A model generated the notes under the pieces. The model saw only the letters and a program-made list of their open reading frames with translations. It had not been told where the DNA came from and ran no database searches. From a virus (taxonomy: Duplodnaviria; Caudoviricetes), in IMG/VR virus record IMGVR_UViG_2895548450_000001, positions 26,778 through 90,777 of that record: DNA of 64,000 bases, one strand, 5' to 3'. The translations under genes and the position numbers were made by a program. Shown in pieces: positions 991 through 53,593 of the stretch. The first letter of the stretch is position 1; each line of letters starts with the position of its first letter.

Positions 991-2193
991 TTAGGCCGCA
1001 GTATCGAAGATTACGCGAGTATCACCGTAAACTAGGCGATAGCCTGAGTTCTCAGTTTTCACATACGTAATTGACTGGTTCTTAATTGCTGTCTCAGACT
1101 CAGACAGTACAGAACCCGCTTCGATAAGTTCTTCCAGCGTGTCAGCCTTCGAATAACAAATCAGCTTACCGGCTGGGGCTGAGCTTGAAATATGGAAGTT
1201 AACACCGCTTAAGAAGTCCATGGCCAGAGCCACACGAGGACCACCGTTCTCCTGAAGAATTTCAGAGGTAGACTTACCGTTAGGCTGAGTTGGTAAGAAC
1301 ATTAGGAACAGTTCTAACCACATATCGTAGTTACCTACGATAGTATCAACCGGTACACCTTTACGCGCACGCTGGGCCAAGAAGTCAGCCAGAGCAACGT
1401 AGTTACCTTTAAGACCTTTAGCCGCATCCCAGTCTTTATAGCTTGAGGCTGCGACCACTTCTGCCGCTTCGTGAACACCATCACCATTGATCAATAGCGA
1501 GGTAGCCATCTTCACTTTGCTGATTTCTTTGTTACGCGCAATACGGGCCGCATATGGCGTAAGAATATCTAGGCTCACACGACGTTCGAATTCGTATGAG
1601 GTACGGATACCAGAACCATGCTTGAAGAACTTAACCGACTTATCAGAGCTTTTGATAGTCTGCATCGGAATGTTGGCAAGTTCCGCGATAGGCGAAGTAT
1701 TTAGCTGGCCTTGGTCGTCAAAAATTGCGGTGGTAATAAGCTCGTTACCAGTGATAGTACGTGTCTGTGCCACCATAGGGGCCGTTGATTCGTACATATC
1801 TTGGCGCGTATTCCACTGAAGCATATCGTCGATAACTTCAGGGAAAAGTGCGCGAGAGCCTGGGCGAGCACTGAAAGTGTCCGCTGCCGCTTGAAGGGTA
1901 ATACCTTGCTCAAACGCGTTTTTGAACGGTAGGTTCAACTCTACGATAGCGGCTTGGTAGCCGGTCATAAAGTTACCGTTTTCCAAACGGAAGTTTTTAC
2001 CCGACTCAGCATCATTTGACGCACGAACGTCAACCGCTAAGTTTAGGTAATCACGAACATTAATACCGTATTGTTTTGCTGCTTGAACCAGCTTTACGCC
2101 AGCGCGAATTGAATCGTCGCTGTGTTCACTATCGATACCCGCTAGAACTACTTTAAGCGGGGCTCGTTTGATCTGACTAAGATTTGTTTGCAT
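991..2193 (-). CDS. Major capsid protein (HK97-fold likely)
   Basis: 400 aa; order portal-protease-decoration-capsid; capsid-like segments (FFKHGSGIRTSYE, LINGDG). Confidence 0.8.
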   Translation of the reverse strand: MQTNLSQIKRAPLKVVLAGIDSEHSDDSIRAGVKLVQAAKQYGINVRDYLNLAVDVRASNDAESGKNFRLENGNFMTGYQAAIVELNLPFKNAFEQGITLQAAADTFSARPGSRALFPEVIDDMLQWNTRQDMYESTAPMVAQTRTITGNELITTAIFDDQGQLNTSPIAELANIPMQTIKSSDKSVKFFKHGSGIRTSYEFERRVSLDILTPYAARIARNKEISKVKMATSLLINGDGVHEAAEVVAASSYKDWDAAKGLKGNYVALADFLAQRARKGVPVDTIVGNYDMWLELFLMFLPTQPNGKSTSEILQENGGPRVALAMDFLSGVNFHISSSAPAGKLICYSKADTLEELIEAGSVLSESETAIKNQSITYVKTENSGYRLVYGDTRVIFDTAA

Positions 2194-2235
2194 CGTCAAT
2201 CTCCAAATTTTTATTTGCGGTGCGAATCTTCCGAA

Positions 2236-2628
2236 TTAACGGAAGATTACAGATACCAAGTTGTTTGTGGTATCAACGGCAGTAACAACCACGTTGCGAC
2301 CTAGGCCAGCTCCGGCAACTTTTACCTTACCATCACCGTTTGATACTACGTGGCCACCCACCGTTGGAGCGGTACCCGCGTATTCAAACTCGGCGCACAT
2401 ATGCCATGAGACCGCGCCCATTTTTACGTTTTCAACTTCGCGGTCTTCGTATGACTCTAGGTAGCCGATGATCTCAGCATCCGCAGAACCAAAACCCACC
2501 TCAAAGTTACCTGTGATACACACAGGTTTACCAACGTCCGCAAAACCCGTGATTGACGCATCTAGATAGAATGATGCTGCCGCGGATTCAGTGCGGATAC
2601 CCTTATGTTGTAAATCGCCAATTTGCAT
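2236..2628 (-). CDS. Head decoration/cement protein
   Basis: 130 aa Gly-rich beta protein between scaffold and capsid genes. Confidence 0.65.
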   Translation of the reverse strand: MQIGDLQHKGIRTESAAASFYLDASITGFADVGKPVCITGNFEVGFGSADAEIIGYLESYEDREVENVKMGAVSWHMCAEFEYAGTAPTVGGHVVSNGDGKVKVAGAGLGRNVVVTAVDTTNNLVSVIFR

Positions 2629-2639
2629 GACTCTTCCCC

Positions 2640-3806
2640 TTATCGATTAGAAACAAACGCACTGTTATGCGCGGCAGAAAGCACCAGAACGTCGTCAGCT
2701 TCTGGTGCGTCCGCACCTTTACCAACACCACCTCTTGGGATTGCTGCCAGTTTAATTTGAGCCTGTTTTAGAAGCTCAATTTTATCGTCCGCGCTGGCGT
2801 CGTCTGCCAACGTCAAACCCGCTGCAACGACAGCTAGTTTTAGTTGCTCATCGAACACGCCGACAATTTTGTTCGCCGTTGCAAGTTTCGCTTCAGCGGC
2901 TGAAAGATCAGATTGAAGTTTGGTATCTGAACCATTCTCAATCTTCGTATTTAGTTCTTCTACTTGTCCTTTCAGCGCGGCTACTTCCGACTGAGACGCG
3001 GTAAGCGCGGCCTCTGCCGTTTCGAGTTTAACTTCTAGCTTGCCGTTAGCTGCGGACAACGTAGAAACTTGGTTTGTTAAAGCTGATAAATCCATAGTTT
3101 CACCTGTTGTTTCACTTTGAGTGGGGGAGCAAGTCATATACCCATACTGTACGGCTTCATGCGAACTCGAAGCGGCAAGCTGGTTATATGCGTCTTTGCC
3201 CAGACGTTGCTTGGCAGAGCCAAGTATCTTCGGTTTATTACTCGCGCCTTTGTTCACGAGTGATAATTCTTTCCAAGCACGGAGGTCGGTTAAGCGAAGG
3301 TGGGTACCATCTACCCCTATTTGGTGACCGTTATCACACTCACGGAACCAAAAACTCATTTCGTTACCTTCGGCCATATAGTCAAAACCACATTCAGAAC
3401 AAAAAGCGTGGTTGGGCGCGGCACCGACAGAAACTTCATCAAGAATAGAAAGGTCAATATCTCGGGCGTAAGGGCCTTCAGCATCAACGTAGAAAAGTAC
3501 ATTCAGGTCGGTATGGCCTTCGTCCGCGGCATACGTCTCCGCCGCAAAGACTTTACCAACAGGCAACATTTGGCCGTTGTGCATAACCTGAATAGGCACA
3601 CTTTCATCTTTGTAGTATCCGGCCATCTGGTTAAGAAAGCCTTCCGTCATTTGAGCGCCGTGATAGGCTGTGCTTGGTTGGTTGATTGGACGAGTAGATG
3701 CCGCAACGCTTTCATACGCTGCTATCTGCGAAAAGTCTATTTCATCACCCGCGGCTGCGGTGATAAGCGATTTAATACGCTCAGTGAGGGTTAGCCGTTT
3801 AGCCAT
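2640..3806 (-). CDS. Prohead protease/scaffold fusion
   Basis: HK97-type protease-like N-half (QVMH, EVSVG, ELSLV, CxxC insert), coiled-coil C-half. Confidence 0.75.
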   Translation of the reverse strand: MAKRLTLTERIKSLITAAAGDEIDFSQIAAYESVAASTRPINQPSTAYHGAQMTEGFLNQMAGYYKDESVPIQVMHNGQMLPVGKVFAAETYAADEGHTDLNVLFYVDAEGPYARDIDLSILDEVSVGAAPNHAFCSECGFDYMAEGNEMSFWFRECDNGHQIGVDGTHLRLTDLRAWKELSLVNKGASNKPKILGSAKQRLGKDAYNQLAASSSHEAVQYGYMTCSPTQSETTGETMDLSALTNQVSTLSAANGKLEVKLETAEAALTASQSEVAALKGQVEELNTKIENGSDTKLQSDLSAAEAKLATANKIVGVFDEQLKLAVVAAGLTLADDASADDKIELLKQAQIKLAAIPRGGVGKGADAPEADDVLVLSAAHNSAFVSNR

Positions 3807-3833
3807 CGTCAATTTCCATCCAAATTTTCGATT

Positions 3834-3881: not shown

Positions 3882-5342
3882 TTAAGACTGGTTAGCCTTA
3901 GACTTCGCGCTTTTGTCTGAAGCTCGACTAACCGAACGTCCTTGAGGGTCCGAATTAGGGCTAACTTTCTCAGCGTCTACTTCCATTGCGCCACCCACAA
4001 AACCGGTGCCGCTTAACTCAGGAACCGCGTCAGGGCGAATACGTCTGTACATTGCAATATGGTAATCGTCGTCTGTAATCAGACCATCACTTAAATCGGT
4101 GCGTAAACGATTAGACTTAAGGTTTAATTGTGCTTCTAATTCTAGCTCAGAACGTAAATCAATATTGGGGAATCTCACAATTACTCGACTTTCTGAACCT
4201 TGAAGTCGTAAGGCCATCGTCAACATACTGCCTAGAATTTCCCCAATAGGCTCGTTCAAGCTGTCCGCGTTTTTGGCAAAGAGGTTGGCTTCCACCGTCG
4301 CGGTATTAACGCCGGATTCCCCGCGCCCTAGAACGGTAGCCATCGTCTTAAGACCGGCTTGGTTCTGTGCGTTGAGGGTATCGATTACTTCTTGAATCTT
4401 TATCCCCGTCGCAGGGTTCTTTTCATTGAGCATTGACACTTCAGCGCTATCCGTGTGGACCATTGCTTGGTCTGGGCGGAGTGTAGCAAAAGCACTGCCG
4501 ATATCTTGTCTACGCTGAGAAATATACGTCCTCATCTTTTGAGGGTCAGCTTTAACGTCTGCAGGGGCATTTTTGACTAACACTTCCTCAAGAACCTTAA
4601 TAGCGATTCTCGGGAAACCCGTAACTTGCATGATTCGGTACAGGTCGTTAATTACCTGTTGTCGCGCTGCCATGGTATTTATCGCACTGATAAACGGACT
4701 ATGGCCATAAGCCTCAACAGGAGGTTTTCTATACCATGCAACGAAGAAAGACGGGATATCCATTTTAATAGGGTCCCCGCCCCCTTGGTCTTGCCACGGT
4801 ACCATTTTCCCAGGCTCTTTTTCTTGCCAGCGAATACTTGCCATATCGATATTGCGAAGTTCCGTTAATTCAAGCTGGTCCCCAAATACGGTTTCACACC
4901 CAATACCCCCACGGGCCAATAGCATGTAACGAAACTCTTCAGAAAGCTCTCTTAAGGTTTTACGCCTCAGGTAACCCTTGGAATAATCTCGACGGGTCTC
5001 GAGCGCTTCAATAAGTTCATTAACAATCTTCGCTCCGTCGCGGTCTATCGCCCCGTCAGGGTCTTTTACGACAATATAGGGGACAGAGCTACCCGCTGTC
5101 GTTAAGTACGCCCCTAATGCCGCTGACGCGTCAGGATCGGACTTAACCAATTTGAGAATTATTTCTTGGGAGGTATCCGACGTTCTTGTCGAATAGATAT
5201 CTTCAAGGTGTTCCCGATAGTCTGGGAGAGAGAGGACTTCGGTGTTATTTTCTGCGTTATAGGTCGCAGTTTGTGTACTCCCCTTCGGCTTAAACCGATT
5301 AGGCACAATTACCTTAAGTTTGCTGAGTATCGTTCCGGCCAT
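3882..5342 (-). CDS. Portal protein
   Basis: 486 aa between terminase and protease; YGHSPF portal-like segment. Confidence 0.75.
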   Translation of the reverse strand: MAGTILSKLKVIVPNRFKPKGSTQTATYNAENNTEVLSLPDYREHLEDIYSTRTSDTSQEIILKLVKSDPDASAALGAYLTTAGSSVPYIVVKDPDGAIDRDGAKIVNELIEALETRRDYSKGYLRRKTLRELSEEFRYMLLARGGIGCETVFGDQLELTELRNIDMASIRWQEKEPGKMVPWQDQGGGDPIKMDIPSFFVAWYRKPPVEAYGHSPFISAINTMAARQQVINDLYRIMQVTGFPRIAIKVLEEVLVKNAPADVKADPQKMRTYISQRRQDIGSAFATLRPDQAMVHTDSAEVSMLNEKNPATGIKIQEVIDTLNAQNQAGLKTMATVLGRGESGVNTATVEANLFAKNADSLNEPIGEILGSMLTMALRLQGSESRVIVRFPNIDLRSELELEAQLNLKSNRLRTDLSDGLITDDDYHIAMYRRIRPDAVPELSGTGFVGGAMEVDAEKVSPNSDPQGRSVSRASDKSAKSKANQS

Positions 5343-5361
5343 CGTCAATTTCCCAAATTAT

Positions 5362-7143: not shown

Positions 7144-7256
7144 GCTACCTCTTTTATCGTCAATTAGTCTAATTTTGGGGTAGATTACGCCGCACTGTGT
7201 ATACAAGCAATCTTTCGGTATGATATTTAACCTATTACAACTTGGAATTGACGATT

Positions 7257-10386: not shown

Positions 10387-10672
10387 TATACGTATGAAAA
10401 CGCTTACCTAAACGCTCCTAATTCATTGTCTTGTTTAATTTACACCCTTGACCGACCACTAAATATTTTATACTTTAGTCGACGTTGACAGCGAACAACG
10501 TCTTGTATATGCATAGACACCTTGCCGCTTATCAACCGAGTGGAGGCTCGACACTATCCACTCCTACAATTTGGAAATTGACGATAAAGCCTGTTCTAAT
10601 TTTAATGCTCGTCCGCATACCTAGTTTCAAGCTTATCTAACGACAACGACCTCTGATTACGTTGAACGTCTC

Positions 10673-10915: not shown

Positions 10916-11003
10916 GAATGCAACTCGGGACACCTACCACGAAACACGGACCGAGGGGGGAACATTCCCCCACCGACAAATTAACTTTTAAGGATTGACG
11001 ATT

Positions 11004-11723
11004 ATGACTACTACTACCACTTTCAACGCTTCAGTGTTTGCATCGGCTCTTGTTACTGCTGATAAAAATGATCTACGTGTGCCAGCCGTTAAAATGGCTA
11101 TCGCTTGCTATGCCGTAGCACACAACATGGAAAAAGGCGCTAACATTGCGCTTTGTTGTGACTTGTATGGCGTGCCAGCTAACCAACGTACAAAAGCCAA
11201 CCGTGACAGCTCACGCCTATACAATCAGGCGAAAGGCTATTGGAAAACGTACGTGAAATTCGTAAATGATAACCGCCAATATCTAACCAAGTTTTTCGAC
11301 GCTATAAAAACGATTGAGTTAAACGGCACATTCGCGCAAATCGGTGACAAGGTATTAAACGCGGATATTTACGGCGAAAATGGCGCTCCTCAAGGCCGCG
11401 TTGAATGGCTTAACTTCCTAGGCGAATACTTGCCTAAGGAAGCGAAAGAAGAAAAGCCTAGCAAGGACGCGAAAAGCGAGCCGGTAAAAGGTAAAGATAA
11501 GGAAGGCGGAGCAGCTAAGCGTGCCGCGGATGATAACGTTACAAGTGCTGTTCAGGCCCTTGTTTCTAAGCTTGAAGATCATACTCAAGCGCTGATCAAT
11601 CATCAGCTTGAGGCCCTAGACGCGGCCGGTTTACCTAAGGCACACCGCGCAAAAGTGAGTAAAGCCATGCTCGCACTATCGCTTGAGATTCAAAAGGATC
11701 TCGAAAAGCAACTAACCAAGTAA
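11004..11723 (+). CDS. Hypothetical early protein
   Basis: 239 aa, ATTGACGAT start motif, flanked by two palindromes. Confidence 0.85.
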   Translation: MTTTTTFNASVFASALVTADKNDLRVPAVKMAIACYAVAHNMEKGANIALCCDLYGVPANQRTKANRDSSRLYNQAKGYWKTYVKFVNDNRQYLTKFFDAIKTIELNGTFAQIGDKVLNADIYGENGAPQGRVEWLNFLGEYLPKEAKEEKPSKDAKSEPVKGKDKEGGAAKRAADDNVTSAVQALVSKLEDHTQALINHQLEALDAAGLPKAHRAKVSKAMLALSLEIQKDLEKQLTK

Positions 11724-11763
11724 GCCCAGCGGGGGGAACATTCCCCCCTCAATTCGAGAAACG

Positions 11764-11807
11764 AAAAACCGATTAGCACGGCTAGTGCTAATCGGTTTTT
11801 TCTTTTT
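11764..11807 (+). terminator. Strong terminator (possibly bidirectional)
   Basis: 16-bp perfect stem AAAAACCGATTAGCAC/GTGCTAATCGGTTTTT. Confidence 0.8.
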
Positions 11808-11884
11808 CGCAAAGCTATTAAGCGCGTGCCTACATCATGTGTGTACCCGTGTGGGTGTGTGCTGGTGGATGTGTGTACCAGTGC

Positions 11885-11919
11885 CTAGGCTCTAGGCTCT
11901 AGGCTCTAGGGTCTAGGCT
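11885..11919 (+). repeat. Tandem CTAGGCT heptamer x5 (one variant)
   Basis: ctaggct ctaggct ctaggct ctagggt ctaggct. Confidence 0.9.
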
Positions 11920-12030
11920 GGTGGATTGTGATAGCAATTCGCGTGAAGGGAATTTGGAGAAACTGGGGGCCGTGACTGTCGCGGCGATTTTAGGGGGGAA
12001 CATTCTCCCCCAATATGAGGGAATAATATT

Positions 12031-12291
12031 ATGAAAATACCAATGCGAATTTTGAGACAGAACAAGGGTTTGAATCTGGGGACCACAGAATATATAAACG
12101 ACAAGAAAGTTTGGTTCCATAAACTTGAGTTGGTAGGTACAACCGCTCAGCTTGAGCGCTGGTGGCGAATGCGCCAGCGTAGACCTAATCCACTTAAAGA
12201 CTTGGATGAGGTTGTTATGTACAACGTTGAGCATGAAGGCGTGCTTGAGTGTGCAGAGGTTCAGGAAATAATTGCTCGTTACGAGCGCTAA
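12031..12291 (+). CDS. Hypothetical protein
   Basis: 86 aa, GAGG RBS, bounded by palindromes. Confidence 0.75.
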   Translation: MKIPMRILRQNKGLNLGTTEYINDKKVWFHKLELVGTTAQLERWWRMRQRRPNPLKDLDEVVMYNVEHEGVLECAEVQEIIARYER

Positions 12292-12332
12292 TTAAGGGGG
12301 GAACATTCCCCCCAGATACAAGGAAATTGATG

Positions 12333-12593
12333 ATGATTACACGTTCTGATTTAGCTTTATTTATCGCGTTTATGGTTCACTTTATGTTGCTGGTGGCTGG
12401 GTTCACGGTCCTCATTTCGAGTCCCGAGGTCCTGGGATTGGGGGGCGTTACGTGTTGGGCCAGTATACCGCTCTTTTGTATCTCTATCGTGAGTCTCTAC
12501 GGCGAAAAACTAGACAAAAGAAGTAACTTGGCGCGGGTGGTATTTCGCTTCAATTGGTGGAAGCTGGCTTTCGTTCTAAAAAATAGAATCTAG
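12333..12593 (+). CDS. Small membrane protein
   Basis: Two hydrophobic segments; GGAAATTGATGATG start variant. Confidence 0.7.
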   Translation: MITRSDLALFIAFMVHFMLLVAGFTVLISSPEVLGLGGVTCWASIPLFCISIVSLYGEKLDKRSNLARVVFRFNWWKLAFVLKNRI

Positions 12594-12827
12594 AGTCTAG
12601 GCTGGTGGTTTTTGGTTCGAGAAAAAAGGATAAAAAACTCGAATCGAGGCTTGACAGCGAGGAAATTGGAGCAGGTCCGACTTCGACCCAAGGGCCTCTA
12701 TCCAAGCTTCTCGCATGAGATTATGGGACGATTAAAAAGCGTCTGTAAAGCATTTTAAAAACTCGGGTATTCACACATACCCTAAAAAAGGGGGGAACAT
12801 TCCCCCCCCAATTACGGGAAATTGACG

Positions 12828-13136
12828 ATGGAATTTAAAAATGTACGTATTCAATTTGGCTGGAATAAGCCGGTTGTTGTCCTCCAATATGGCACCCTGC
12901 AATACGAGATTGGCACGCTAGAATTGAAGGGCGTAACACTCATGCAGCTAGGCAGTTTGAACCCAGAACACGTAGCAAAGCATCACCAAATGTTGTTAGT
13001 TTGCGAAATGAGCACAACAATAAGACTGGCAAAAACCGATGTTCCCGAGCCAGTTAATACGTGTTCCCGTAAACTTTTTGATGAAACCGCTCTGGAACAG
13101 CCAAAAGTAGCACTCAACACCAATTTAAGCGCCTAG
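12828..13136 (+). CDS. Hypothetical protein
   Basis: GGAAATTGACGATG start motif. Confidence 0.65.
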   Translation: MEFKNVRIQFGWNKPVVVLQYGTLQYEIGTLELKGVTLMQLGSLNPEHVAKHHQMLLVCEMSTTIRLAKTDVPEPVNTCSRKLFDETALEQPKVALNTNLSA

Positions 13137-13331
13137 ATTCAAGCACTTAGATTTTGTGTTCCCATAAACTTTCTTGGCCTTTTTTCGCAAATCGTGAAAC
13201 GGTAGAATGCGGGTTGTAGCTGTGCAAATTTTGTACAGTTACGCGTAACCGGCACTGCTGCGAAATATCCACGCAATGGCGTGGTTTACAAGGGCTGAAG
13301 ACGCAGTGGCAAAAATGTTCCCACAAACTTT
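13061..13331 (+). repeat. Three TGTTCCCRYAAACTTT direct repeats
   Basis: Copies at 13062, 13157, 13316, followed by AT-rich tract. Confidence 0.75.
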
Positions 13332-13724
13332 CGTTATTATATGTACATTTATATACTCAACTGAGAACATTTTTTAAGAAGTATACTTTTAAAAACTTTG
13401 CTTTCGTTTTAATTCGTACCTAAGGTTTATTTACACACAATGTTCTCGTTCCTCCTTGTGACTTGCTGCTAGTCGCAGTGATCGGGCAAACGACCTTTGA
13501 GTGACGCGCTGTAACCTTTGCGCGTTTGGGATTTTGGCTTGGCCCTCTCGTCTCACTGTCGCAACGAGCAACAACCCCTAAAAAACGTGAGCCACACCCA
13601 AATTGTGTTTTTTGGCCTTAACAGGCCATTGCAATTGACTCGGGCATTTTGCCCTTGTATAACTGAAATCCGCCCTTCGGGGTGTTACGGCGTGAGCCGA
13701 TTAATTAACTAGGAAATTGACGAT

Positions 13725-14111
13725 ATGACTAAATCCATTCCCCAACCTGTAAACCAGACTGCGCCCTCCCCTCACGAACTCATGCGCCAAACCCAGCGCG
13801 AGATTGCTGAAGCTGTCATGAACATGAAAGCCAAGCAAATCGAATGTCTCATTGGCCTGTACAGAAAATCGGATGCCTTGGAAGGTACCGACGACCTAGG
13901 CGAAATGTATCGTCGTACTCAAATGCTCAGTCAAGAACTCGACCTGGACTTTTCCGTCGTCCAAAAACTCGTCGATTTTGGCTTCAATTGTGGTGTTGAA
14001 TGCGCGGCCTCTATCGCATCCTCAGCGGGTGCAATGGAAAAGGTGCTAGGTAAGGACGAATCTTGCGAGAAGTCTCCGTGTAGTGACGCTGCGGCGCGAG
14101 AATCGGCATAG
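13725..14111 (+). CDS. Hypothetical protein
   Basis: Start motif, 128 aa. Confidence 0.75.
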   Translation: MTKSIPQPVNQTAPSPHELMRQTQREIAEAVMNMKAKQIECLIGLYRKSDALEGTDDLGEMYRRTQMLSQELDLDFSVVQKLVDFGFNCGVECAASIASSAGAMEKVLGKDESCEKSPCSDAAARESA

Positions 14112-14142
14112 TAAACACCAACAATTAGTGAGATTGACGATT

Positions 14143-14448
14143 ATGAGTGTAAAAGTGACTAAAAGTTCGAATCTAAATTCGATGCTTATGAAACATTGTG
14201 TGCGGGTTATTTCTCTTTTGGATGAATTGAAAAAGTTGTGTGATTTACAAGGCACGGTTCATCTTGACGGCGATTATCCGTTGGCTATTACGGGGACGGA
14301 TAGAACGTGTGTTGGCCCTTTCAATGTAAGTGGTGGATGGTTTCAGACAATTATCGCCCGTCGTAAAGCCGAAATTATCGATGAGCTCTTCGATATGGGG
14401 CATGATCTTACTTCCTTCGAAGAGCCTGAGGAAGCGGACGATGAGTAA
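14143..14448 (+). CDS. Hypothetical protein
   Basis: Start motif; start corrected from ORF track. Confidence 0.7.
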   Translation: MSVKVTKSSNLNSMLMKHCVRVISLLDELKKLCDLQGTVHLDGDYPLAITGTDRTCVGPFNVSGGWFQTIIARRKAEIIDELFDMGHDLTSFEEPEEADDE

Positions 14449-14935: not shown

Positions 14936-15003
14936 GATGCGAAGGGGGAGAATGTTCCCCCCCTGATTTGGTAATTAACTTTTAAAAATTGGAAATTGAC
15001 GTT

Positions 15004-16308: not shown

Positions 16309-16355
16309 ACGATAACGAGGGTGGGAACATTCCCCCCCTCTTTTGGAGATTGACG

Positions 16356-18340: not shown

Positions 18341-18363
18341 AATTGACGATAAGGAGAAAAGCC

Positions 18364-18591: not shown

Positions 18592-18600
18592 GGGTTTTTG

Positions 18601-35403: not shown

Positions 35404-35422
35404 ACTCTCGGAAATTGACGAT

Positions 35423-39240: not shown

Positions 39241-39260
39241 CTAAAAACAGGAAATTGACG

Positions 39261-40151
39261 ATGTATTTTAAAAACGCAAAGATTTATTCACTCACTCAAA
39301 ATGTTGACTTGTCTAACCTAGGCCCAGCGCTAGAGGCAATCCCCTTTCACCCTTGTGGTTCACATACCCTAGCCTCTTTAGGTTTTGCACCTATCATTGG
39401 TTCTTTACTGGCTCACGAAGTTCAAGGTATTTACACGGTTAAGCTTTTAAAAGAGAGCAAGATACTACCGGCCCGTGTTATCAACCGTGAGTTAGAAGAA
39501 AAAGTTAAGTTGATTGAAGCGGAAACGGGGTCACCGGTTGGCAAGAAGCAACGCTCAGATTTAAAAGAGCAAATCGTAGCCCAGCTAACTCCGCGTGCTT
39601 TCACGGATCAAACCTCAACCATTGGCACCATCATCCCAGAGCATAAACTTGTGTTCGTGAATGCCTCTTCAGATGGTGAGGCCGAAATCTTCCTTGCGGT
39701 ACTTCGTAAAGCGCTGGGTAGTTTACCTGTAGTTCCCTTCGCAAGACGCTCACTTGCTTCAGACTTAACAAGCTGGCTTGTTAATGGCCACCCTGACAAG
39801 TTCGAATTGCTCGAAGAGACTGAGCTTCAAGCCACAGATGAAACCAAAGCAGTTATCCGAGCCAAGAACCAAGAACTTGCATCTGAAGAAATTCAACTGT
39901 GTTTAGACTCAGGCAAGCTCGTTCAGAAACTTGCGGTCAGTTACGACGACCAGTTAACCGCTATGCTTTGCGAAGATGGTTCTGTTAAGCGTATCAAGTA
40001 TTCCGAGCGCTTGATTGAAGAAAGCGATGATATTCCTAAGGACCAACAGGAAGCGCGTCTTGATTCAGAAATCTATCTTGGGGCCAGTGCACTTCTAGAC
40101 TTGGCGCTGGACCTTAAAGCGGCGTTTAACCTTGATGCTGATGAAGTGTAA
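39261..40151 (+). CDS. rdgC: Recombination-associated protein RdgC
   Basis: MYFKNAKIY, KILPARVI, PRAF, LRKALGSLPVVP. Confidence 0.92.
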   Translation: MYFKNAKIYSLTQNVDLSNLGPALEAIPFHPCGSHTLASLGFAPIIGSLLAHEVQGIYTVKLLKESKILPARVINRELEEKVKLIEAETGSPVGKKQRSDLKEQIVAQLTPRAFTDQTSTIGTIIPEHKLVFVNASSDGEAEIFLAVLRKALGSLPVVPFARRSLASDLTSWLVNGHPDKFELLEETELQATDETKAVIRAKNQELASEEIQLCLDSGKLVQKLAVSYDDQLTAMLCEDGSVKRIKYSERLIEESDDIPKDQQEARLDSEIYLGASALLDLALDLKAAFNLDADEV

Positions 40152-40162
40152 GGAGATTGACG

Positions 40163-40603
40163 ATGCCAGAGTATAAACCAGACATAAATGTAACGACCGC
40201 GTTCAATAATGAAGTGATTGAACAGTCCGTAGCGTTCCCAAGACAGGAATCGTTATTCAATCATATAACGAAGCAAATTGTTTTCTTACAAGACGAGGGT
40301 ATTAATCAAGCGTTGTATAAGCTGGGCTACCTTAACCCTAAACAAGTTATTGCGCTCAAAGACGCTTACCTCGCAGCAAAACATAACGAGGGGGGCGTAC
40401 AGCGTGTTATGGGCGAGTTAGGTAGGCTCTTTGATGAGCCAGCCATCCCTTCTGAAAAGCCAGAAGAAAGCGCACCTGAAGTAGTAGTTAGAAATAAACC
40501 CGAAGGCCCACAGAACGAGAAGATACCCCCTACTGTTACAAAAATGTGCGGGTCCTTTTCGGAGGGCGGGTATATTTATAACAAGAAGCCCGAGTCAAAA
40601 TAA
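40163..40603 (+). CDS. Hypothetical protein
   Basis: Start motif. Confidence 0.7.
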   Translation: MPEYKPDINVTTAFNNEVIEQSVAFPRQESLFNHITKQIVFLQDEGINQALYKLGYLNPKQVIALKDAYLAAKHNEGGVQRVMGELGRLFDEPAIPSEKPEESAPEVVVRNKPEGPQNEKIPPTVTKMCGSFSEGGYIYNKKPESK

Positions 40604-44546: not shown

Positions 44547-44635
44547 TTAATAAAAATCCAGTCAGTTTACCAGCAACTCGCTTGATTACTTTTTATAATG
44601 CTGGTCTCATACTTAAAAATTAAAGGAAATTGACG

Positions 44636-45244
44636 ATGATACTTAACGGTATTAAATATGACTTTTTAACACCTGAAATCTTTAAAAAGTTTTTCAGCGA
44701 TATTACTGATTTCAGAACCGCTTTTGACTTGCCGATAGGTGTCCCTTACCGCTCAGAAGACTATCAATTACACTTCGACTTATATCGAGAGGAAATGCGT
44801 GAGCTTTTTAGTGCTCATAAGCGCAAGGATAAGCTTGACGCTATTCTAGATAGTCTCTATGTGTTGTTTGGTAAATACGTTCACTTCGATATCGTTCTGG
44901 ATGAGCAAGAACCTTGCGAACTAAACGTAGTTGAAACACTTCTATCTTCATCAGAAGAACTAAACTTCGATATCCTTAAAGGCTGGGATATCGTCCATCA
45001 CTCGAATATGAGTAAGCTATGCAACGATGATAACGTGCAAGCGACACTCGACCACTACACTTCCTTAGGTGTTAGTGTTGAAGCAAAACCTGTAACACTT
45101 ACCAATAAAAATAAAAATGAAGGTACCGCGCTCTGGGCCGTGAAGGTTAAAGAAGAGAGTACCGATCATAATGGTAAAAGCTATGCTGCTGGCAAAGTGC
45201 TTAAGTCTGTTGATTATACCCCTGCAGACCTAAGTAAACTTTGA
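44636..45244 (+). CDS. MazG-like NTP pyrophosphohydrolase
   Basis: EEMREL, DAILDSLYV, VHHSNMSK, GKVLKS. Confidence 0.85.
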   Translation: MILNGIKYDFLTPEIFKKFFSDITDFRTAFDLPIGVPYRSEDYQLHFDLYREEMRELFSAHKRKDKLDAILDSLYVLFGKYVHFDIVLDEQEPCELNVVETLLSSSEELNFDILKGWDIVHHSNMSKLCNDDNVQATLDHYTSLGVSVEAKPVTLTNKNKNEGTALWAVKVKEESTDHNGKSYAAGKVLKSVDYTPADLSKL

Positions 45245-45294
45245 TGAAGTCGGCCCTCACTTAGAGGGCCGCTACAATTTGGATTAAATTGACG

Positions 45295-48200
45295 ATGGCT
45301 AACCAAGTAGAACAAAAGTTTTACCTGACACTCTTTACCAACTCCACCGGAGTGCTCACTAAAGAGCTGCGAATGGAGCATGGTAAAATTATAAGTGATG
45401 CACCAAAGATGGTGACAGGTACCGCAAAACGCGTAGAACTAACATTAACTGAACTGCCGGACTTTATAAAGAGTCTCAACCATAACCAGTGCTTTACTCC
45501 TGGCATTATGGATACGGAACATGAGTTTGTTGAGGTTCTAACCAGCAACGAGTTTGAGCGTCGAGGATACCAATACCCAGTTCACGTAGATGAGACGGGT
45601 GTATATGGCACACGTTCTTCAAAATCTATGATCACAAAAGGTCCTAGCTTAGTTCTTTTCGATTACGACAAAGACGAACACGCAAAACTAAAAATCAAAG
45701 GCCCTGAGGAATTCCTAACGCATCTTAATAATGCAGTTCCAGAACTAGAATTAAATAACACGGACTACATTAGAACCTACAGTACCTCTACGTCATTATT
45801 CGACAAAGAAACCAATAAGGTAATACGCCCCGCGGATGGCTTCCATATTTATATGCTGGTTGAGAAAGGGGAAGATATTGCTCGATTTGGCAAGATGCTT
45901 GAGAAGCGTTGCTGGATGGCTGGCCTAGGCCACATTAAAGTGAGCGCGAGTGGGGGCCGACTACCACGAACAGTTTTCGATACCTCAGTTTTCCAGCCAG
46001 AACGTCTATGTTTTGAAGCTGGCGCATTTATTCGAGCCAAAGAGAACTTCTACCAGAATTTACCGAAAGGCGAGATTAACCGTAAAGGTAAGCGGTTATT
46101 AAAAACTAAGCTTCTGAAGGACTTTACACCTACTCAAGATAAAGAATTTCGTCGTGTTGTTGAGTTAGAAAAACAATCTAAAGACGTAATGGAACGTGTA
46201 TCTGAATTTAGAGAAGTAAAAGTTCAGAGAATGGTTAACACCACACACTACACGCAAATGCCGCTTTCTCGTGACGACGCTATGAAGATAGTCAAGGCAC
46301 ATGAGAACAAGATACTTCACCCTGCGGATGTTCTAGAGTTTGAAGATGGTCGTATAACCAGCGTGCTTGAAGCGTTCTTAAACCCTACGCTTTATGATGG
46401 TGCCCAATTACAAGACCCACTACGCCCTGAGAAAGGCTATTCGAAAGCTAAGTTCTACGCCAACGCTGGCCGCTATGGTGACTACAACCCGACGATACAC
46501 TCGTTTGTGGAAGGTGAGAGAAACTTTGAGCTGCGTGAGTCTATTGAGACCTTTATGAGTAAGACCGAGACTACCGAGTCTAGGCTTGAGGAATTCGATT
46601 CTAAAGCTATGGTTATTAACCAGCGCTATCTACCAGAGCTAAGACTACGCCCTGGCATAACACTGGTGAAAAGCGATAAAGGTACCGGTAAAACGTTTAT
46701 GCTTAGGAATCAAGTAAAGGATACCGAAGTCCGAGTTATTGCTATCAGTCACCTTATCTCGTTAGTTAACTCACTTTCAAAACAGTTCAATCTTGCAGAC
46801 TACAATGAAATTGAAAGCGAACGGTTGCACTCGTTACGTATGCAAAAACGCTTAGGTATCTGCCTTAATTCGATATACAAGCTTCAAGGCCAGAACTACG
46901 ACATTGTTATTATGGATGAGGTTTGTCAGCTTGTACGTGCAATTAAAGCGACAACCGTTGATAAACCGGCAGCGTGTTTGAAAGTGCTTCGCGAGATTAT
47001 CGCTGGCGCTAAATATGTGGTTTGTATGGATGCCGACTTAAACAAAGAGTTCGTGGACCTAATGAGAGACCCTGACTTTGGTATTCTTCCTCAAGAACGT
47101 GCAATGAACGTCGTTATCAACAATTATCGTCCAGCTCGAGAGCAAGGCCGACAAGTAACGCTGTATCAAGATACCGATGGGAAGGGTGACACCTCTGCGT
47201 TTGTTGAGTCTTTGATCAACGAAGCTAAAACCGAGGGCTTATTCTACGCCTCAAACTCTAAAGTTGATGTACTTAAAAAAGCTGCAACGATTATTGAGGA
47301 ACTGGGGGGTGATGGCCAGATTGAGCATGAACACTTTATAACCGAAGTGAATGGACGCCGAGTTATTACTATCACCAGTAACAACTCCCAGACCCCAGAC
47401 GTTCAAGCCTTCATTCGAGACTTAAATGGTAACCTTAAAGAAGATGATATTTTTATGTCCTCCCCTTCTATGGGTACCGGCCACTCAATTGATGCTACAG
47501 AAATGGGGGCTAAGTTTAAAAAGACTTTTGCGTTCTTTACTAAAATGGCGGGTAACCTCCCTTCGGATTGCTTGCAGCATATGAGCCGCGTTCGTGAGTG
47601 CACCGACTATCACATTATGTATTTGGATAATGCGAGACGTTACCCTACCGCTCCCTTAGAAATCGTTCAAAAAGAGGTTTTTGGTAACCGGAACACCATT
47701 GATAATAAACTCTGTGTTCAATTTATTTCGGAGTACGACCATGCCACGGAACGTTTGAAAATAAATGACCATGGTTGGTCGGACTGGTATGGCCAACTAA
47801 AGAGTTTTGAAAATAATAAGCTTAATCACTTTTCTAAAAACTTGGTCAACGCTTTAGAAAATGAAGGTTACCAAATAAACACGCTTTATACGCTGGCCTC
47901 TGAAGAAGGCTACAATTTAAAAATGCTGATGGACGAACTAACAGACCAGATTAGAGAAGTAGAGAAACAAAAACTTCGTGAAACGGAGCTGTTATCGGAC
48001 GAAGAATTTGAAATCTTAGATAACCAGACTTTGAAAAATGCGGAGGAACAACGTCAGCTACTTAAGAAACGACAAGCGCGACTCTTTGGCCTAGAGGCTG
48101 GGGATGAGCTTAACGATGTAGTTACTATGTCAACACAGGCACTTAATGGCCGACGTAAGGGCTTACTCTTAGGGGCTAATAATGACGACCTTTTCCTTAT

Positions 48201-48798: not shown

Positions 48799-48889
48799 AG
48801 GGTTATTCTTAAGCATAATAACTATTAAATAATATAATAACTATAAGGCTCCGCTAGGGGCCTTTTAAATATAAATTGACGAGTCGAGC

Positions 48890-49396: not shown

Positions 49397-49421
49397 GTTT
49401 TATACAATTAGGAAATTGACG

Positions 49422-49829
49422 ATGCAAAACACTGGTAAAACCTCCGAAGATATCTTCGAAGAGAATATGAAAGCGCTGGGCGCTCATGTATATCGCTTCG
49501 AAGATCATGCTGATGTAAACAAGTCCCGCGTTCGTAAGCGTATTGTTTCATCCAAACCCTCTGATTTTCTTGTGACTCAGAAAGGCTTAACGTCCTTCGC
49601 GGAAGTAAAGAGTATTTCTGAAAGCCCTCGTTTTGATTTCTCTCGAATTGAAAAGCGTCAGTGGCGTGAAGCGACAAAGGTAACCAAAGCTAAAGGCCTC
49701 TACTACTTCTATCTTCATTTCATAAGTATTGATGGGTGGTTTAAAGTCCCCGCGGACCTAATTCTAAGCTGGCCTAAGAAGTCTATGCGTTATGACGAAC
49801 TCACCCAGTTCCAATTTACGTGGGGGTAA
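49422..49829 (+). CDS. PD-(D/E)xK nuclease, RecU-like resolvase
   Basis: GKTSE, PSDF, AEVKS, Q motif. Confidence 0.75.
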   Translation: MQNTGKTSEDIFEENMKALGAHVYRFEDHADVNKSRVRKRIVSSKPSDFLVTQKGLTSFAEVKSISESPRFDFSRIEKRQWREATKVTKAKGLYYFYLHFISIDGWFKVPADLILSWPKKSMRYDELTQFQFTWG

Positions 49830-50211: not shown

Positions 50212-50221
50212 GAAATTGACG

Positions 50222-51247
50222 ATGCAAATGCAACCAATCGAATCGCTTAACGATTTAGTTAAACTCCCCTCTTTTGTACAGACGTTAGGTGACCCGCACC
50301 TAGCCCGTAAATTCAATACTGGCGTACCTACACACCGTAAAGGTGAGCGCGAAGAAATGGTGAAAGATACCTTTGCGGGTATTGTTACTGCGCCAGGGTA
50401 TAAGCTTCACGTTTGTATGGGTGACTTGTTTGATAAGTTCCGCGTGCCGGAAGAAGATATCTTATTTGCGGCCGACGTTTATCGTCTTGCGGCCAGCACT
50501 TATCCAGACCGTCAGTTCGTGATAATTCGCGGCAATCATGATGCCTCGAGAGACACCCAGTTCAAAAGCTCGTTTGATGTATTTACACAGCTTGTCGCTC
50601 ACGTTCCTAATATTCACGTAGTTGCTGAAAGCGCACTTAAGCTAACCATTGAGAAAGAGCACTTTGTTTTCTATCCGTGGCACCCTTTCAAAACGGCGAA
50701 AGAAATTGCGGCGGAGATTAAACCTCCTGTTGGGTTCTTTGCGTTTGGCCACTGGGATATTCTCGCATTTAGTGAAGATAGTTCAGCAACCGATAACTTG
50801 ATCCCTTTTGAAGAAATGCAAACCGCGCTTGCGGTTATCACTGGCCACTATCACACCCCGCGTATTTTTATGGAAGGTGATACACCAGTCTGGGTTACTG
50901 GTTCTATGCAACCATACTCACATGCTGAGGACCCAACTAACCAGCTTTATATAACAGCCACGCTTCAGGAAGCGACAGAGGCCTTAGAAGCTAACCCAGA
51001 AAGGTTTAAGAATATGAACCTTCGCGTCACGCTTCTCCCTAACGAGGCCCCTATTGCGGATGTAGATTGTTTAAGCCTGACTTTTAAACGCGTCTCGGAT
51101 AATAAAGACGACGAACTGGAAGTAAATCTAGATAGCTTTGACTTAGAAGGCATCTTCAAAGCAACAATGGCAGAACACGACGTTTCAACTGAAACAACCA
51201 ATCAACTTTGGGGCCAGTTTATGGACCTAAGCGCGGAGGCTGAATAA
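50222..51247 (+). CDS. SbcD/Mre11-like nuclease
   Basis: GDPH, GDLFD, GNHD, GHYH. Confidence 0.9.
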   Translation: MQMQPIESLNDLVKLPSFVQTLGDPHLARKFNTGVPTHRKGEREEMVKDTFAGIVTAPGYKLHVCMGDLFDKFRVPEEDILFAADVYRLAASTYPDRQFVIIRGNHDASRDTQFKSSFDVFTQLVAHVPNIHVVAESALKLTIEKEHFVFYPWHPFKTAKEIAAEIKPPVGFFAFGHWDILAFSEDSSATDNLIPFEEMQTALAVITGHYHTPRIFMEGDTPVWVTGSMQPYSHAEDPTNQLYITATLQEATEALEANPERFKNMNLRVTLLPNEAPIADVDCLSLTFKRVSDNKDDELEVNLDSFDLEGIFKATMAEHDVSTETTNQLWGQFMDLSAEAE

Positions 51248-53271
51248 TGCTTTCTTCAATTAAATATGACTTAACGTTCTCGAACGGCAAAACAATTAAA
51301 AACGAGTTGGAACTAAATGCGGGTTCAACGTTGATCACCGGCGCGAACGGCAAAGGTAAATCACTTAACTTTGAAATGGTGGGCTTTGCCCTCTTTGGTA
51401 ATAAATCCCTTCGCGGCATTGCTGGCGATTACAAGCGAATGAAGGTAGAGGTTGTTATTGCTATCAATGGCGAGACTTACACTATCACTCGTACCAAATC
51501 TAAGTCTGAGGTACACCACAAAGGTGAGCCTATCGTAAGTGGTACCAAGCCAGTTAATCAGTGGGTGGTTAGAACCTTAGGATATGGCTTTGATGTATTC
51601 CGTATTGCTCACTGGTGCGCTCAAGGTGATATCCAAGCGCTTGCGGATATGCGCCCCACGGAACGTAAACAAATGATTGATTCGGTTGCTGGCCTAACTC
51701 AAATGGATGGGCTTGCTAATAATATGGCCGGAGAGATTAGGGAACTGCGTGCGGTTATTGATACGCACAAAAAGAACTTGGTCGAGCCTGTGGCGCCTAC
51801 GCAACCTCAAACACCTAAAGCGGATATCGAGAACGCGTTATCGACGTACAAAACGAGTCTTGAGAACTGGCTAACGGCAAAAGCTGTATCGGTACCAACC
51901 GAACCAACAAAACCGGTACCACCCCAAGAGCCGATTTACCCAGACAAGCCCGAACCTCTAGCCCCGACGATGAAGGCCCCTGAGTTCCCTACGCTAAGTA
52001 ACGGTATGCCAACCACGGTATCTCAGTTAACAACGGTGGAACTGAACCTTCAGAATAACCTTGATAAAGCGGTAAAGGTTGAAGCTGAGTTCTTGCGTCT
52101 CGAGGCACAATACAAACCTTGTGAACCTAACCCAGACTGGCCAGAGCAACAGCCGCTTTATGACGCTTGGGCCGAGCACGATCGCTTTAACCGTATTCAA
52201 GAACTTAAGGCTTCACACACGATTGAATGCCCGAACTGTAAGCATCACTTCCATTTGTCGGCGGAGATTGAAGAACTAGAAAAGTTACCAGTCCGTGAAG
52301 AGGCCCCAAGCGTAACCGTTAAAGAATGGAATGAAACAAGGACCCAGATTGAAATAAACAAGAAGCATGACAGCCTATTAGAAGAGCTGCAGAGCTTAAA
52401 TATTGATGATTTGAGAACCGCGCTTCACGAAGTTCGCACGGCTAAGTCTGCAATACTTCAGTTTGAGAAAGAGAACAAGGACTATAAGAGCCATGTGTCT
52501 AATATCTCTCAGATGAATGAACAGCAAAGTAAAAACTGGGAAGGTACCTGTAAGCGGATAAAAGACCAGTTTGATAATCAAATGCGGATGTATGATAGTC
52601 AAGCCACCCATTTTGAAGGTTTGAAGCAAGCTTACGGTGAAGCTAAAGCGAGGTATGACGAAGCGCAAGAAACGCTTAAAGGTATTACTCAGCAATTCCC
52701 TGAGAATACCGAAGCGACCCTACGTAATGTGATTAGCCAGCTAGAGTCGGCCCGTCAAGAATGGGCGAACTACGAGCATCTTTCTGGCCAGTACGAACAG
52801 GCTTTGGCCACCTATAATAAAAGTATTGAAGGTGTAGCTGCCGAGGAAGCGCGTTTATCGGAACTGTCTCGGGCTCGTGAAGCACTTAAGGTAGTGAAAG
52901 CTAAGGTTCAAAGTCACCTATTGCCTTCACTTAATAAAGTGGCCTCGATGCTTATGAGTGAAATGACCGGTGGCGAATTCCAGTCTGTTGAAGTAGGGCA
53001 AGATTTCGAGGTTGTTGTTGATGGCCAGCCGCTAAGAACGCTGTCAGGATCGGGTAAAGACCTTGCTAATTTAACACTGCGAATCGGTTTAGGTCGTATT
53101 TTGACTCACCGTGTATTACCTTTAATGATGCTAGACGAGATTGATAGTGCTATGGACGACACCCGAGCCAGCTTCACATGGCAATGTATCCAACGTATCA
53201 CGCCACATATCGGACAGGTTTTACAGGCATCACATAAAGAACTCGATGCCGAGAACCGCGTAGCTGTTTAA
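51247..53271 (+). CDS. SbcC/Rad50-like ATPase
   Basis: GANGKGKS, CPNC zinc hook, LSGS, LDEID. Confidence 0.9.
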   Translation: MLSSIKYDLTFSNGKTIKNELELNAGSTLITGANGKGKSLNFEMVGFALFGNKSLRGIAGDYKRMKVEVVIAINGETYTITRTKSKSEVHHKGEPIVSGTKPVNQWVVRTLGYGFDVFRIAHWCAQGDIQALADMRPTERKQMIDSVAGLTQMDGLANNMAGEIRELRAVIDTHKKNLVEPVAPTQPQTPKADIENALSTYKTSLENWLTAKAVSVPTEPTKPVPPQEPIYPDKPEPLAPTMKAPEFPTLSNGMPTTVSQLTTVELNLQNNLDKAVKVEAEFLRLEAQYKPCEPNPDWPEQQPLYDAWAEHDRFNRIQELKASHTIECPNCKHHFHLSAEIEELEKLPVREEAPSVTVKEWNETRTQIEINKKHDSLLEELQSLNIDDLRTALHEVRTAKSAILQFEKENKDYKSHVSNISQMNEQQSKNWEGTCKRIKDQFDNQMRMYDSQATHFEGLKQAYGEAKARYDEAQETLKGITQQFPENTEATLRNVISQLESARQEWANYEHLSGQYEQALATYNKSIEGVAAEEARLSELSRAREALKVVKAKVQSHLLPSLNKVASMLMSEMTGGEFQSVEVGQDFEVVVDGQPLRTLSGSGKDLANLTLRIGLGRILTHRVLPLMMLDEIDSAMDDTRASFTWQCIQRITPHIGQVLQASHKELDAENRVAV

Positions 53272-53344
53272 CTTTTATAGGCTGGTGAAAGCCAGCCGAA
53301 CCTACCCTTTAGGGTATAACTTTTAAAATTTGGAAATTGACGAT

Positions 53345-53593
53345 ATGACGAACTCAGCTAATGATAACTACCCTGTTGCTATTAATGTGACTACTAGCCT
53401 AAGAACCGTACCACTCACTAAATATTGTGAACTGTCTGGTGAAGACATAGAAACGGTACGACAGAGAATTAAACGCGGACACTGGGTAAAAGGCGTACAT
53501 GCAATTAAGCCACCCCATATCCGCGAACTTTGGATTGACTTAGAAGCGGTAGAACAATGGATAAGAAATGGGGGCAACTCCCTCGCGGGGTAA
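53345..53593 (+). CDS. xis: Excisionase
   Basis: VPLTKYCELSG...WIDLEAVEQW; overlaps integrase. Confidence 0.8.
   Translation: MTNSANDNYPVAINVTTSLRTVPLTKYCELSGEDIETVRQRIKRGHWVKGVHAIKPPHIRELWIDLEAVEQWIRNGGNSLAG

Follow-up and report, generated by a model that had tools for sequence, protein, structure and literature searches.

A phage-specific word associated with translation starts in temperate marine siphoviruses

The phage and a word repeated at its start codons

The IMG/VR provirus record IMGVR_UViG_2895548450_000001 (90,777 bp; hereafter G000) was analyzed with emphasis on its right 64 kb, which we refer to as the window and to which all positions given without a genome name belong; a further 26.8 kb lies to the left. 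The record carries an ~80-kb temperate siphovirus of Alteromonadaceae, the terminase of which matches a contig of an Alteromonadaceae metagenome-assembled genome (MAG). The capsid, portal, terminase, tape measure and J-like tail fibre modules are encoded on the minus strand, and the primase, ligase, helicase, DNA polymerase A, primase-helicase and SbcCD modules on the plus strand, with a tyrosine integrase gene marking the right end of the phage (Table 1). No tRNA genes were found in the window. Both sets of modules share the subject of this study, the 9-mer ATTGACGAT, which lies within a 14-nt cassette, GGAR-ATTGACG-ATG, consisting of a Shine-Dalgarno (SD) sequence, a fixed spacer and the start codon.

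The window contains 34 exact copies of the 9-mer, compared with 0.55 expected from 100 dinucleotide-preserving shuffles (standard deviation 0.78, shuffle maximum 3), and 54 copies with at most one mismatch, compared with 14.4 expected. In the whole record, there are 41 exact copies, 7 of them left of the window, every one oriented like the local genes, and there are 29 copies of the extended form GGARATTGACGAT, with none for the reversed control. In most of the 41 copies (31), the 9-mer is fused to a start codon, an ATG at offset 7 (23 copies, where the ATG shares the last two bases of the 9-mer), 9 (4 copies) or 10 (4 copies); we denote these class I sites, and the sequence 5' of all 31 is GGAA or GGAG, or GGA displaced by 1 to 3 nt. 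Six copies belong to a second type, class II, in which the 9-mer lacks GGAR and is followed by A, one to five nucleotides, a strong SD, four to seven nucleotides and then ATG or GTG, each being located within 25 nt of the start. The other four head no open reading frame (ORF) of at least 40 codons. Within the window, the corresponding numbers are 28 fused copies, three class II copies (12 to 16 nt 5' of a separate SD and start) and three copies that head no ORF, one of them an orphan and two located within genes; six degenerate copies are found at starts as well (Table 1). The original prediction, which described the motif as lying near starts throughout the prophage, listed 26 starts, at all of which the 9-mer is located no more than 30 nt upstream of the ATG or GTG, on the right strand, and exact copies are indeed lacking beyond 54.8 kb, as it stated. 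The tie to starts is thus upheld, but the motif does not mark all starts: about 40 of the ~100 phage genes (about 40%) carry it, including structural ones for capsid, portal, terminase, tape-measure and tail proteins.

The anatomy of the cassette is best seen when 77 class I sites of three phages are combined into a profile: a sharp block, GGAA-ATTGACGAT-G, has only a weak A/T-rich segment before it, at -11 to -5 (0.2-0.5 bits), and zero conservation after it. GGAR is found exactly at the sites without a downstream SD and is missing where an SD follows; because the two swap in this manner, GGAR behaves as an SD and must be within the transcript, and because the 9-mer precedes its own SD in six copies, it constitutes an independent element. 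The earlier proposal of a frozen SD-to-start spacer therefore describes the fused sites but is incomplete, given these six copies upstream of their own SD. The word adjoins the start even where 74 to 180 nt of intergenic room exists, and it is also accommodated in upstream coding sequences, three of which end in EIDDE, EIDDE and EIDDAC immediately before the stop codon, as previously remarked. At 20 sites, TTG-ACG-ATG creates a false in-frame TTG start, which accounts for the MTM and EIDD features of the ORF track in the way that had been suggested; the word can thus be used to correct gene starts, and it also marks prophages of this clade sensitively.

The word is linked to independent initiation. 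In three phages, the median upstream gap is 57, 33 and 56 nt for motif genes and 4, 1.5 and 14.5 nt for other genes, and a gap of at least 15 nt precedes 33/40 versus 26/59, 28/36 versus 32/76, and 31/33 versus 33/66 genes, respectively (Fisher test, 1.5e-4, 5e-4 and 6e-6). Genes without the motif are mostly translationally coupled and have strong SDs. By comparison, SD:anti-SD pairing at motif starts is weaker (median -4.3 versus -5.9 kcal/mol; n = 100 versus 195, p = 0.0095), and the start codon is ATG at 98/100 motif starts versus 154/195 others. The early region additionally contains 11 copies, in both orientations, of a G/C-rich intergenic hairpin of the GGGGGGAACATTCCCCCC type, several of which are located 8 to 24 nt 5' of the motif, often with AATTAACTT next, a sequence that may resemble the 'epsilon' enhancer of T7 gene 10. 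The hairpin word differs by lineage, being GGGGGGAACATTCCCCCC in G000, GGGGGCATGTGCCCCC in the IMG/VR phage G001 and GGGGTAACGTTACCCC (18 copies) in Pseudoalteromonas phage KB12-38.

Two arrangements of the word depart from the general pattern. The orphan copy at 10577 is located in a 700-nt non-coding region (10290-10990) at the head of the plus-strand early genes, which contains sigma-70-like hexamers and direct repeats of the TCTAGGTTCTCGGG type (iterons or operators?); a strong terminator follows the orphan copy, and a 235-nt stretch folds with z = -2.57. This region could represent a non-coding RNA with a decoy start site. In the tail-gene block, a divergent pair of motifs separated by ~110 nt is present both in G000, at 16297(-)/16410(+), and in the provirus G002, at 67506(-)/67611(+); the plus-strand member is followed by AGGAG and TTG or GTG, with no long ORF, and could belong to a tiny gene or a regulatory RNA.

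Table 1. Copies of the word and associated features, in window coordinates (aa, amino acids)
Feature	Position	Strand	Start, gene or remark
Class I, GGAG-ATTGACG-ATG	2192..2200	-	Start 2193, major head protein (400 aa)
Class I	3805..3813	-	Start 3806, head-module protein, 388 aa
Class I	5341..5349	-	Start 5342, portal protein
Class II, 9-mer then AAAAGAGGTAGC then GTG 7143	7156..7164	-	Terminase large subunit
Class I (offset 10)	7247..7255	+	Start 7257, 160 aa
Orphan, full GGAA context, no start codon (GACGATAAAG)	10577..10585	+	Between hairpin and terminator
Class I (offset 10)	10994..11002	+	Start 11004, 239 aa
Degenerate class I, ATTGATGAT	12326..12334	+	Start 12333, 86 aa
Class I	12821..12829	+	Start 12828, 102 aa
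Class I (offset 9)	13716..13724	+	Start 13725, 128 aa
Class I (offset 10)	14133..14141	+	Start 14143, 101 aa
Degenerate class I, ATTGACGTT	14995..15003	+	Start 15004, 162 aa
Class I	16349..16357	+	Start 16356, 51 aa
Class I in 3' end of upstream ORF (EIDDE)	16497..16505	+	Start 16504, 162 aa
Class I in 3' end of upstream ORF (EIDDE)	17196..17204	+	Start 17203, 298 aa
Class II, 9-mer then AAGGAGAAAAGCC then GTG 18364	18342..18350	+	
Class I	18827..18835	+	Start 18834, 61-aa gene missing from G002, between two cassettes
Class I	19043..19051	+	Start 19050, DNA methyltransferase (299 aa)
Degenerate class I, ATTGATGAT	20529..20537	+	Start 20536, 92 aa
Degenerate class I, ATTGACAAT	20863..20871	+	Start 20873, 267 aa
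Class I (offset 10)	23108..23116	+	Start 23118, 461 aa
Class I	25364..25372	+	Start 25371, 148 aa
Class I in 3' end of upstream ORF (EIDDAC)	26009..26017	+	Start 26016, 115 aa
Class I	26416..26424	+	Start 26423, 279 aa
Exact copy without GGAR in 5' part of HTH_3 gene	28652..28660	-	Probably no start site
Class I (offset 9)	28893..28901	+	Start 28902, ATP-dependent DNA ligase
Exact copy within gene, without GGAR	30191..30199	+	Consistent with chance
Class I	31284..31292	+	Start 31291, 230 aa
Class II	32003..32011	+	ATG 32028, 113 aa
Class I	34298..34306	+	Start 34305, 351 aa
Class I (offset 9)	35414..35422	+	Start 35423, 5'-3' exonuclease-like (267 aa)
Degenerate class I, one base inserted (ATTGACTGAT)	36854..36863	+	Start 36862, 172 aa
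Class I	39254..39262	+	Start 39261, recombination exonuclease (296 aa)
Class I	40156..40164	+	Start 40163, 146 aa, before DNA polymerase A
Class I	44629..44637	+	Start 44636, MazG-like protein (202 aa)
Class I, GGA 3 nt further upstream	45288..45296	+	Start 45295, primase-helicase (1167 aa)
Degenerate, ATTGACGAG	48875..48883	+	15 nt 5' of ProQ/FinO start (48890)
Class I	49415..49423	+	Start 49422, RecU-like resolvase (135 aa)
Class I	50215..50223	+	Start 50222, SbcD-like nuclease
Class I (offset 9)	53336..53344	+	Start 53345, 82-aa gene before integrase
G/C-rich intergenic hairpin, GGGGGGAACATTCCCCCC type	10955..26394 (span)	both	Copies at 10955, 11731, 11993, 12296, 12790, 14944, 18786, 20820, 23063, 25323, 26376
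HTH_3 (Cro/CI-type) protein	28352..28720	-	Shared with G002 only
Two 15-nt inverted repeats	28740..28810		Divergent region between HTH_3 gene and ligase operon
ProQ/FinO-family RNA-binding protein, 168 aa	48890..49396	+	PF04352, 47.1 bits (cutoff 27), E = 2.6e-12
Tyrosine integrase	53557..54795	+	Right end of motif-bearing phage

Conservation in related phages and scarcity in hosts

A scan of IMG/VR for the exact 14-mer returned at least 111 stretches, most of them single chance matches, the useful ones being contigs of ~72-83 kb. Four motif-bearing phages, namely, G000, G001, G002 and KB12-38, were compared with five more distant relatives serving as outgroups (JWF, Seuss, EAb13, Lumi and phiVP505). 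G001 carries 29 copies of the same word, although its proteins are only 30-71% identical to those of G000 and the two genomes are alignable over just 10.4 kb at 68% identity. G002 aligns to G000 over 58 kb at 72% and has 21 copies; in addition, 19 of its sites read ATCGACGAT, a T/C difference that produces a perfect 4+1+4 palindrome, and orthologous sites switch between T and C. This split could reflect polymorphism among the copies, relaxed specificity, or two readers. Among the matches listed, the other contigs with the 14-mer include G003 (8 copies), G004 (3 copies) and G005 (1 copy). Invariance in G001 and a fifth lineage (L160) is limited to the core TGACG-ATG-A, and the one or two bases before it are free.

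The word drifts further in KB12-38, the proteins of which share 25-60% identity, where it takes the form GGATTGAC(A/G/T)-N0-8-ATG at 27 sites, with an AATTAAACTAAAA element upstream. A lineage-neutral pattern matches 36, 38, 35 and 23 starts in the four phages, compared with 3, 3, 1 and 1 in reversed controls. The site is kept at 26/32 orthologues in G002, and the exact word at 5/17 orthologues in G001 (many more with one mismatch) and at 8/16 in KB12-38. Among the outgroups, no start word was detected in JWF, Seuss, EAb13 and Lumi, and only a mild, SD-like one was found in phiVP505.

Closer comparison reveals strong constraint. In four close relatives, a single change was observed in 336 word positions, compared with 95 changes in 1234 positions of the upstream 60 nt and 30 in 871 positions of the first 45 coding nucleotides, a rate 25-fold lower than in the upstream flank and 11-fold lower than in the adjacent codons, although three of the four relatives are mutually close and hence not independent. 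The word is also identical in lineages in which the hairpins and flanks have diverged. Taken at face value, these data leave little doubt that the word is real and under selection.

The word is phage specific and missing from host starts. The 13-mer has 1 match in five related host genomes (22.6 Mb), and the 14-mer has 26 matches in 200 further genomes of the host family, with at most two per genome (3 for the reversed control), so that host starts are not equally rich in the motif, in agreement with the phage-specific signal originally envisaged. In the host MAG, 8 of the 9 copies are on four short contigs, each of which is alignable to G000 from end to end and thus a prophage fragment; the ninth copy is on contig C531, which does not align to G000. 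A literature search for the 9-mer retrieved primer coincidences only.

Known systems and possible readings of the word

[quoted passage not shown] In the relevant parts of the published accounts, such sequences have been catalogued in actinobacteriophages since 2011 (Cluster K, EF; PMC3203893, PMC7302621, PMC12699233), and their role was still called unverified in 2025 (PMC12699233, PMC7302621, PMC3203893). The likeness is extensive: in both cases, a short asymmetric repeat in one orientation, with 10 or more copies per genome, lies a few bases from starts, preferably ATG, of unrelated genes in temperate siphoviruses, is conserved across subclusters and nearly absent from the host, and is accompanied by a second, lineage-specific upstream repeat (ESAS there, the hairpins here). 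There is, however, no sequence similarity to the published consensus GGGATAGGAGCCC or GGGAAAGGACCCC, and the word is accordingly an analogue rather than a homologue. Furthermore, SAS is an extended SD (containing AGGAG) located 3-7 nt upstream of the start; in the present cassette, it is the spacer and the ATG that are fixed, next to a weak SD. GGAR does occupy the 5' edge of the cassette, although invariance resides in the spacer and GGAR is missing from class II copies. SAS is found at non-structural genes only, unlike the present word with its capsid, portal, tape-measure and tail sites. What is new here, then, is an unrelated sequence with a fixed spacer and ATG, coverage of structural genes, a copy number two to three times higher (36-41), the class II form, and Gram-negative marine hosts. 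The SAS phenomenon would thus have arisen independently in these temperate phages, whose hosts are Gram-negative marine bacteria, and with sharper contours: fixation affects the SD-to-AUG spacer, which is normally unconstrained, structural and early genes alike carry the word, and it survives at 30-70% protein identity.

Judging from these sequence patterns, we lean slightly toward the view that the word is a clade-specific, start-associated element that acts on the mRNA at initiation. Under this scenario, the fixed cassette, (A/T-rich)-GGAR-ATTGACG-ATG, would head those cistrons that recruit ribosomes on their own, that is, those following an intergenic gap or a hairpin, and translationally coupled genes would do without it. 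GGAR would serve as a weak SD, and (T)TGACG, placed between the SD and the AUG or, in class II sites, just 5' of a separate SD, would be read in trans by a factor that decides whether the 30S subunit can use the site. This factor would not be 16S rRNA acting by base pairing and is probably a protein; the drift of the word between lineages suits a phage factor that co-evolves with it. Phage-encoded control of this kind has a precedent in T4, where, according to part of the published description (PMC3014915), RegA and RegB act at the initiation region of at least ~30 phage mRNAs, RegA sites overlapping the AUG with the SELEX consensus aaAAUUGUUAUGUAA, and strong RegB sites (for RegB/S1 cleavage) comprising the SD and the next 7 nt (GG*AGRAYARAA). 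The RegB footprint matches the extent of GGAR-ATTGACG, but the T4 sites are degenerate, A/U-rich and confined to early genes, in contrast to the fixed word described here. Protein families were assigned by Pfam and PHROG scans of the ORFs, and regulators reported as absent are absent among the ORFs scanned; no protein of the RegA/RegB family was identified in this manner.

As for the identity of the reader, five proteins follow the distribution of the word, occurring in each phage that bears it and in none of the outgroups: two virion proteins, a MazG-like protein, the primase-helicase, and a ProQ/FinO-family protein. The latter (4/4 motif-bearing phages, 0/5 outgroups) is the only regulator-type protein so distributed, and thus the only conserved RNA-binding candidate; IMG/VR searches with the protein and with its alignment recovered the same clade only (7 contigs). 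In all four phages, the ProQ/FinO gene belongs to the few genes that follow a gap (48798-48890 in the window) and are devoid of the canonical cassette. FinO domains, as outlined in part of a family review, bind a helix together with a single-stranded 3' tail. This preference would fit terminator hairpins better than an unstructured word, and ProQ is accordingly treated here as a candidate cassette partner, not as a demonstrated reader. The hairpins, being sequence-identical terminators, which are unusual, may be natural ligands for the phage FinO-domain protein.

Several observations weigh against an RNA-level reading or against ProQ as its agent. Besides the mismatch between the binding preference of FinO domains and the unstructured word, the ProQ link represents one clade and one evolutionary event and is confounded with the marine host and the temperate lifestyle; indeed, an integrase (tyrosine integrase in G000, G001 and G002, annotated as integrase in KB12-38) shows the same distribution, 4/4 versus 0/5. 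Neither RegA, CsrA, S1 and S21 nor sigma-like proteins were detected, and the reader could conceivably be a DNA-binding protein of unknown fold. The proposal that the word keeps the initiation region unstructured was rejected, the unpaired probability being 0.52 versus 0.50 for other genes (p = 0.61). Finally, homology breakpoints cluster at the motif, and part of its spread may thus be recombinational.

A stronger version of the translational reading, which we hold to be less likely than not, is that of a private code for translation initiation, whereby the word would mark the ~40% of cistrons that have weak SDs, and a phage factor (ProQ/FinO together with the hairpins, or an as yet unrecognized RNA-binding protein) would read it on the mRNA and switch the lytic programme as a block. 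If so, leaky lytic transcripts, for example, might be silenced in the lysogen independently of host mRNAs, and a start-associated sequence would for the first time have a mechanism assigned to it. Whether the reader recognizes RNA or DNA is testable in culturable Alteromonas, or in Pseudoalteromonas with KB12-38, starting from the five candidate proteins.

In Cluster A phages, the L5 repressor binds stoperators on the DNA, blocking RNA polymerase, and the word might likewise be an operator at which a prophage DNA-binding protein, bound to the asymmetric sequence, silences the lytic cistrons; we consider this unlikely. According to parts of the literature, stoperators of L5/Cluster A phages are asymmetric sites oriented with transcription (PMC3203893, PMC4351075), and the resemblance, dozens of such sites in a temperate phage, mostly in short intergenic spaces, is clear, as is the co-occurrence of the word with an integrase, found in all motif-bearing phages and in none of the five motif-less relatives. 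Moreover, the canonical cassette is missing at opposite-strand genes in lytic blocks and at the integrase, HTH and ProQ genes, and the G002 variant ATCGACGAT is a perfect palindrome. Stoperators, however, have no tie to start codons, and it is the immunity repressor that reads them, on DNA. In the present case, no helix-turn-helix or other DNA-binding protein is common to all motif-bearing phages (HTH_3 is shared with G002 only), and the switch region has 15-nt inverted repeats of its own, which are probably ordinary dimer-type operators of the immunity switch unrelated to the word. The palindrome, moreover, does not hold in G000, G001 and KB12-38. Nor would a DNA operator predict the weld to the SD and ATG despite free room, or the swap of GGAR and SD. 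A comparably improbable alternative takes the word to be a recombination joint only, that is, the conserved 3' end of hairpin/leader cassettes, an ordinary ribosome site without a reader of its own that is retained through the copying and exchange of cassettes. Cassettes of this type are known in T4-like phages as promoter-early/stem-loop (PeSL) elements and, more generally, as the module 'linkers' of Susskind and Botstein. In both PeSL and the phages studied here, repeated stem-loop cassettes end at a start, and the flanking genes differ between relatives. The word indeed sits at mosaic joints: 10 of the 49 homology breakpoints between G000 and G002 fall within 40 nt of a motif versus 2.4 +/- 1.5 for random positions, although, because the control consisted of random positions rather than starts of motif-less genes, part of the enrichment reflects intergenic location. 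Genes at 18834-19019 and 14330-14935 are inserted between two cassettes, and the G002 copies are split evenly between T and C at one position, a pattern that variants in the course of spreading would produce. The same word at many genes would thus serve as a joint for gene insertion or loss also under the translational reading. As the sole function, though, recombination hardly accounts for the word at core genes that are never swapped and have no hairpin (capsid, portal, tape measure, primase-helicase), for its persistence where hairpins and flanks have diverged, or for its low rate of change relative to flank and codons; 14 bases are short for homologous exchange, and evolvability alone would hardly hold 14/14 bases at 20-30 sites. 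In addition, no sigma-70 promoter, the early component of PeSL, fits into the 8-24 nt between hairpin and word.

The remaining explanations place the word at the level of transcription or of RNA pairing. A promoter, with TTGACG as the -35 element or with ~20-nt AAATTWGGAR-ATTGACGAT as a phage promoter producing leaderless or short-leader mRNAs, would agree with the fit of TTGAC to the -35 consensus (KB12-38 has TTGACA) and with the early region, where sigma-70-like sites are scarce (16 versus 27.5 expected) and terminator-like hairpins abundant (39 versus 20.9). We nevertheless regard it as very unlikely, given that the 77 sites show no conserved -10 element at any downstream distance, that just 1 motif site in window 10000-29500 scored as a promoter with the motif as -35, that the upstream A/T-rich positions are weak, that GGAR acts as an SD and must be transcribed, with the hairpin too close by, and that no RNA polymerase or sigma factor was found. 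A sigma-70 promoter in particular, which would call for a TATAAT-like hexamer 16-18 bp after a TTGACA-like one, was rejected, since the 77 sites show no conservation downstream. Pairing of the word with 16S rRNA or a small RNA (sRNA), perhaps assisted by ProQ/FinO, as in FinP/traJ or RocR, appears the least plausible of all. It could draw on the FinO-family chaperone encoded beside the replication genes, on the capacity of members of this family, described in part of the review, to promote sRNA pairing at ribosome sites, and on the G002 T-to-C change, which would turn a G.U into a G-C pair with a partner G. The resemblance to a 16S segment raised in the original prediction turned out to be at chance level, however: in the 16S rRNA of a host relative, which has a canonical 3' end, a duplex at least as strong as the best one with the word (-11.0 kcal/mol) is available to 213 of 300 shuffled motifs, and 63 of 300 also share a same-sense 8-mer, as the word does with AATTGACG. 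The complementary sRNA, whose existence had also been raised, did not emerge from a masked scan of the phage either, where the best anti-motif (about -15) is within the shuffle minima (-15.0 to -17.7). No conserved perfect complement exists on either strand of the 200 host-family genomes, and the window gave 0 Rfam matches at gathering thresholds. Further candidates were set aside: a hairpin of 3 bp that the word could form by itself (AUU-GAC-GAU, with C-G in the G002 variant) is too weak and is broken by G001 variants, and the elemental-pause consensus and an RNase E-like site inside the word would be too degenerate to account for 14 fixed bases.

Neighbouring island and accessory genes

To the right of the integrase, the window (54959-64000) is occupied by a second mobile island with a lower GC content (34-39%) and no copies of the motif. 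It encodes a tyrosine integrase, a UvrD-like helicase, a serine resolvase and another integrase, along with two reverse-transcriptase ORFs (416 and 670 aa), and looks like cargo of the defence-island type. DndB, RadC, methyltransferase and GH108 endolysin families were recognized among 64 aligned ORFs, and the annotation of KB12-38 includes DndB and PAPS-reductase genes. This gene content suggests a DNA-modification module in this phage group.

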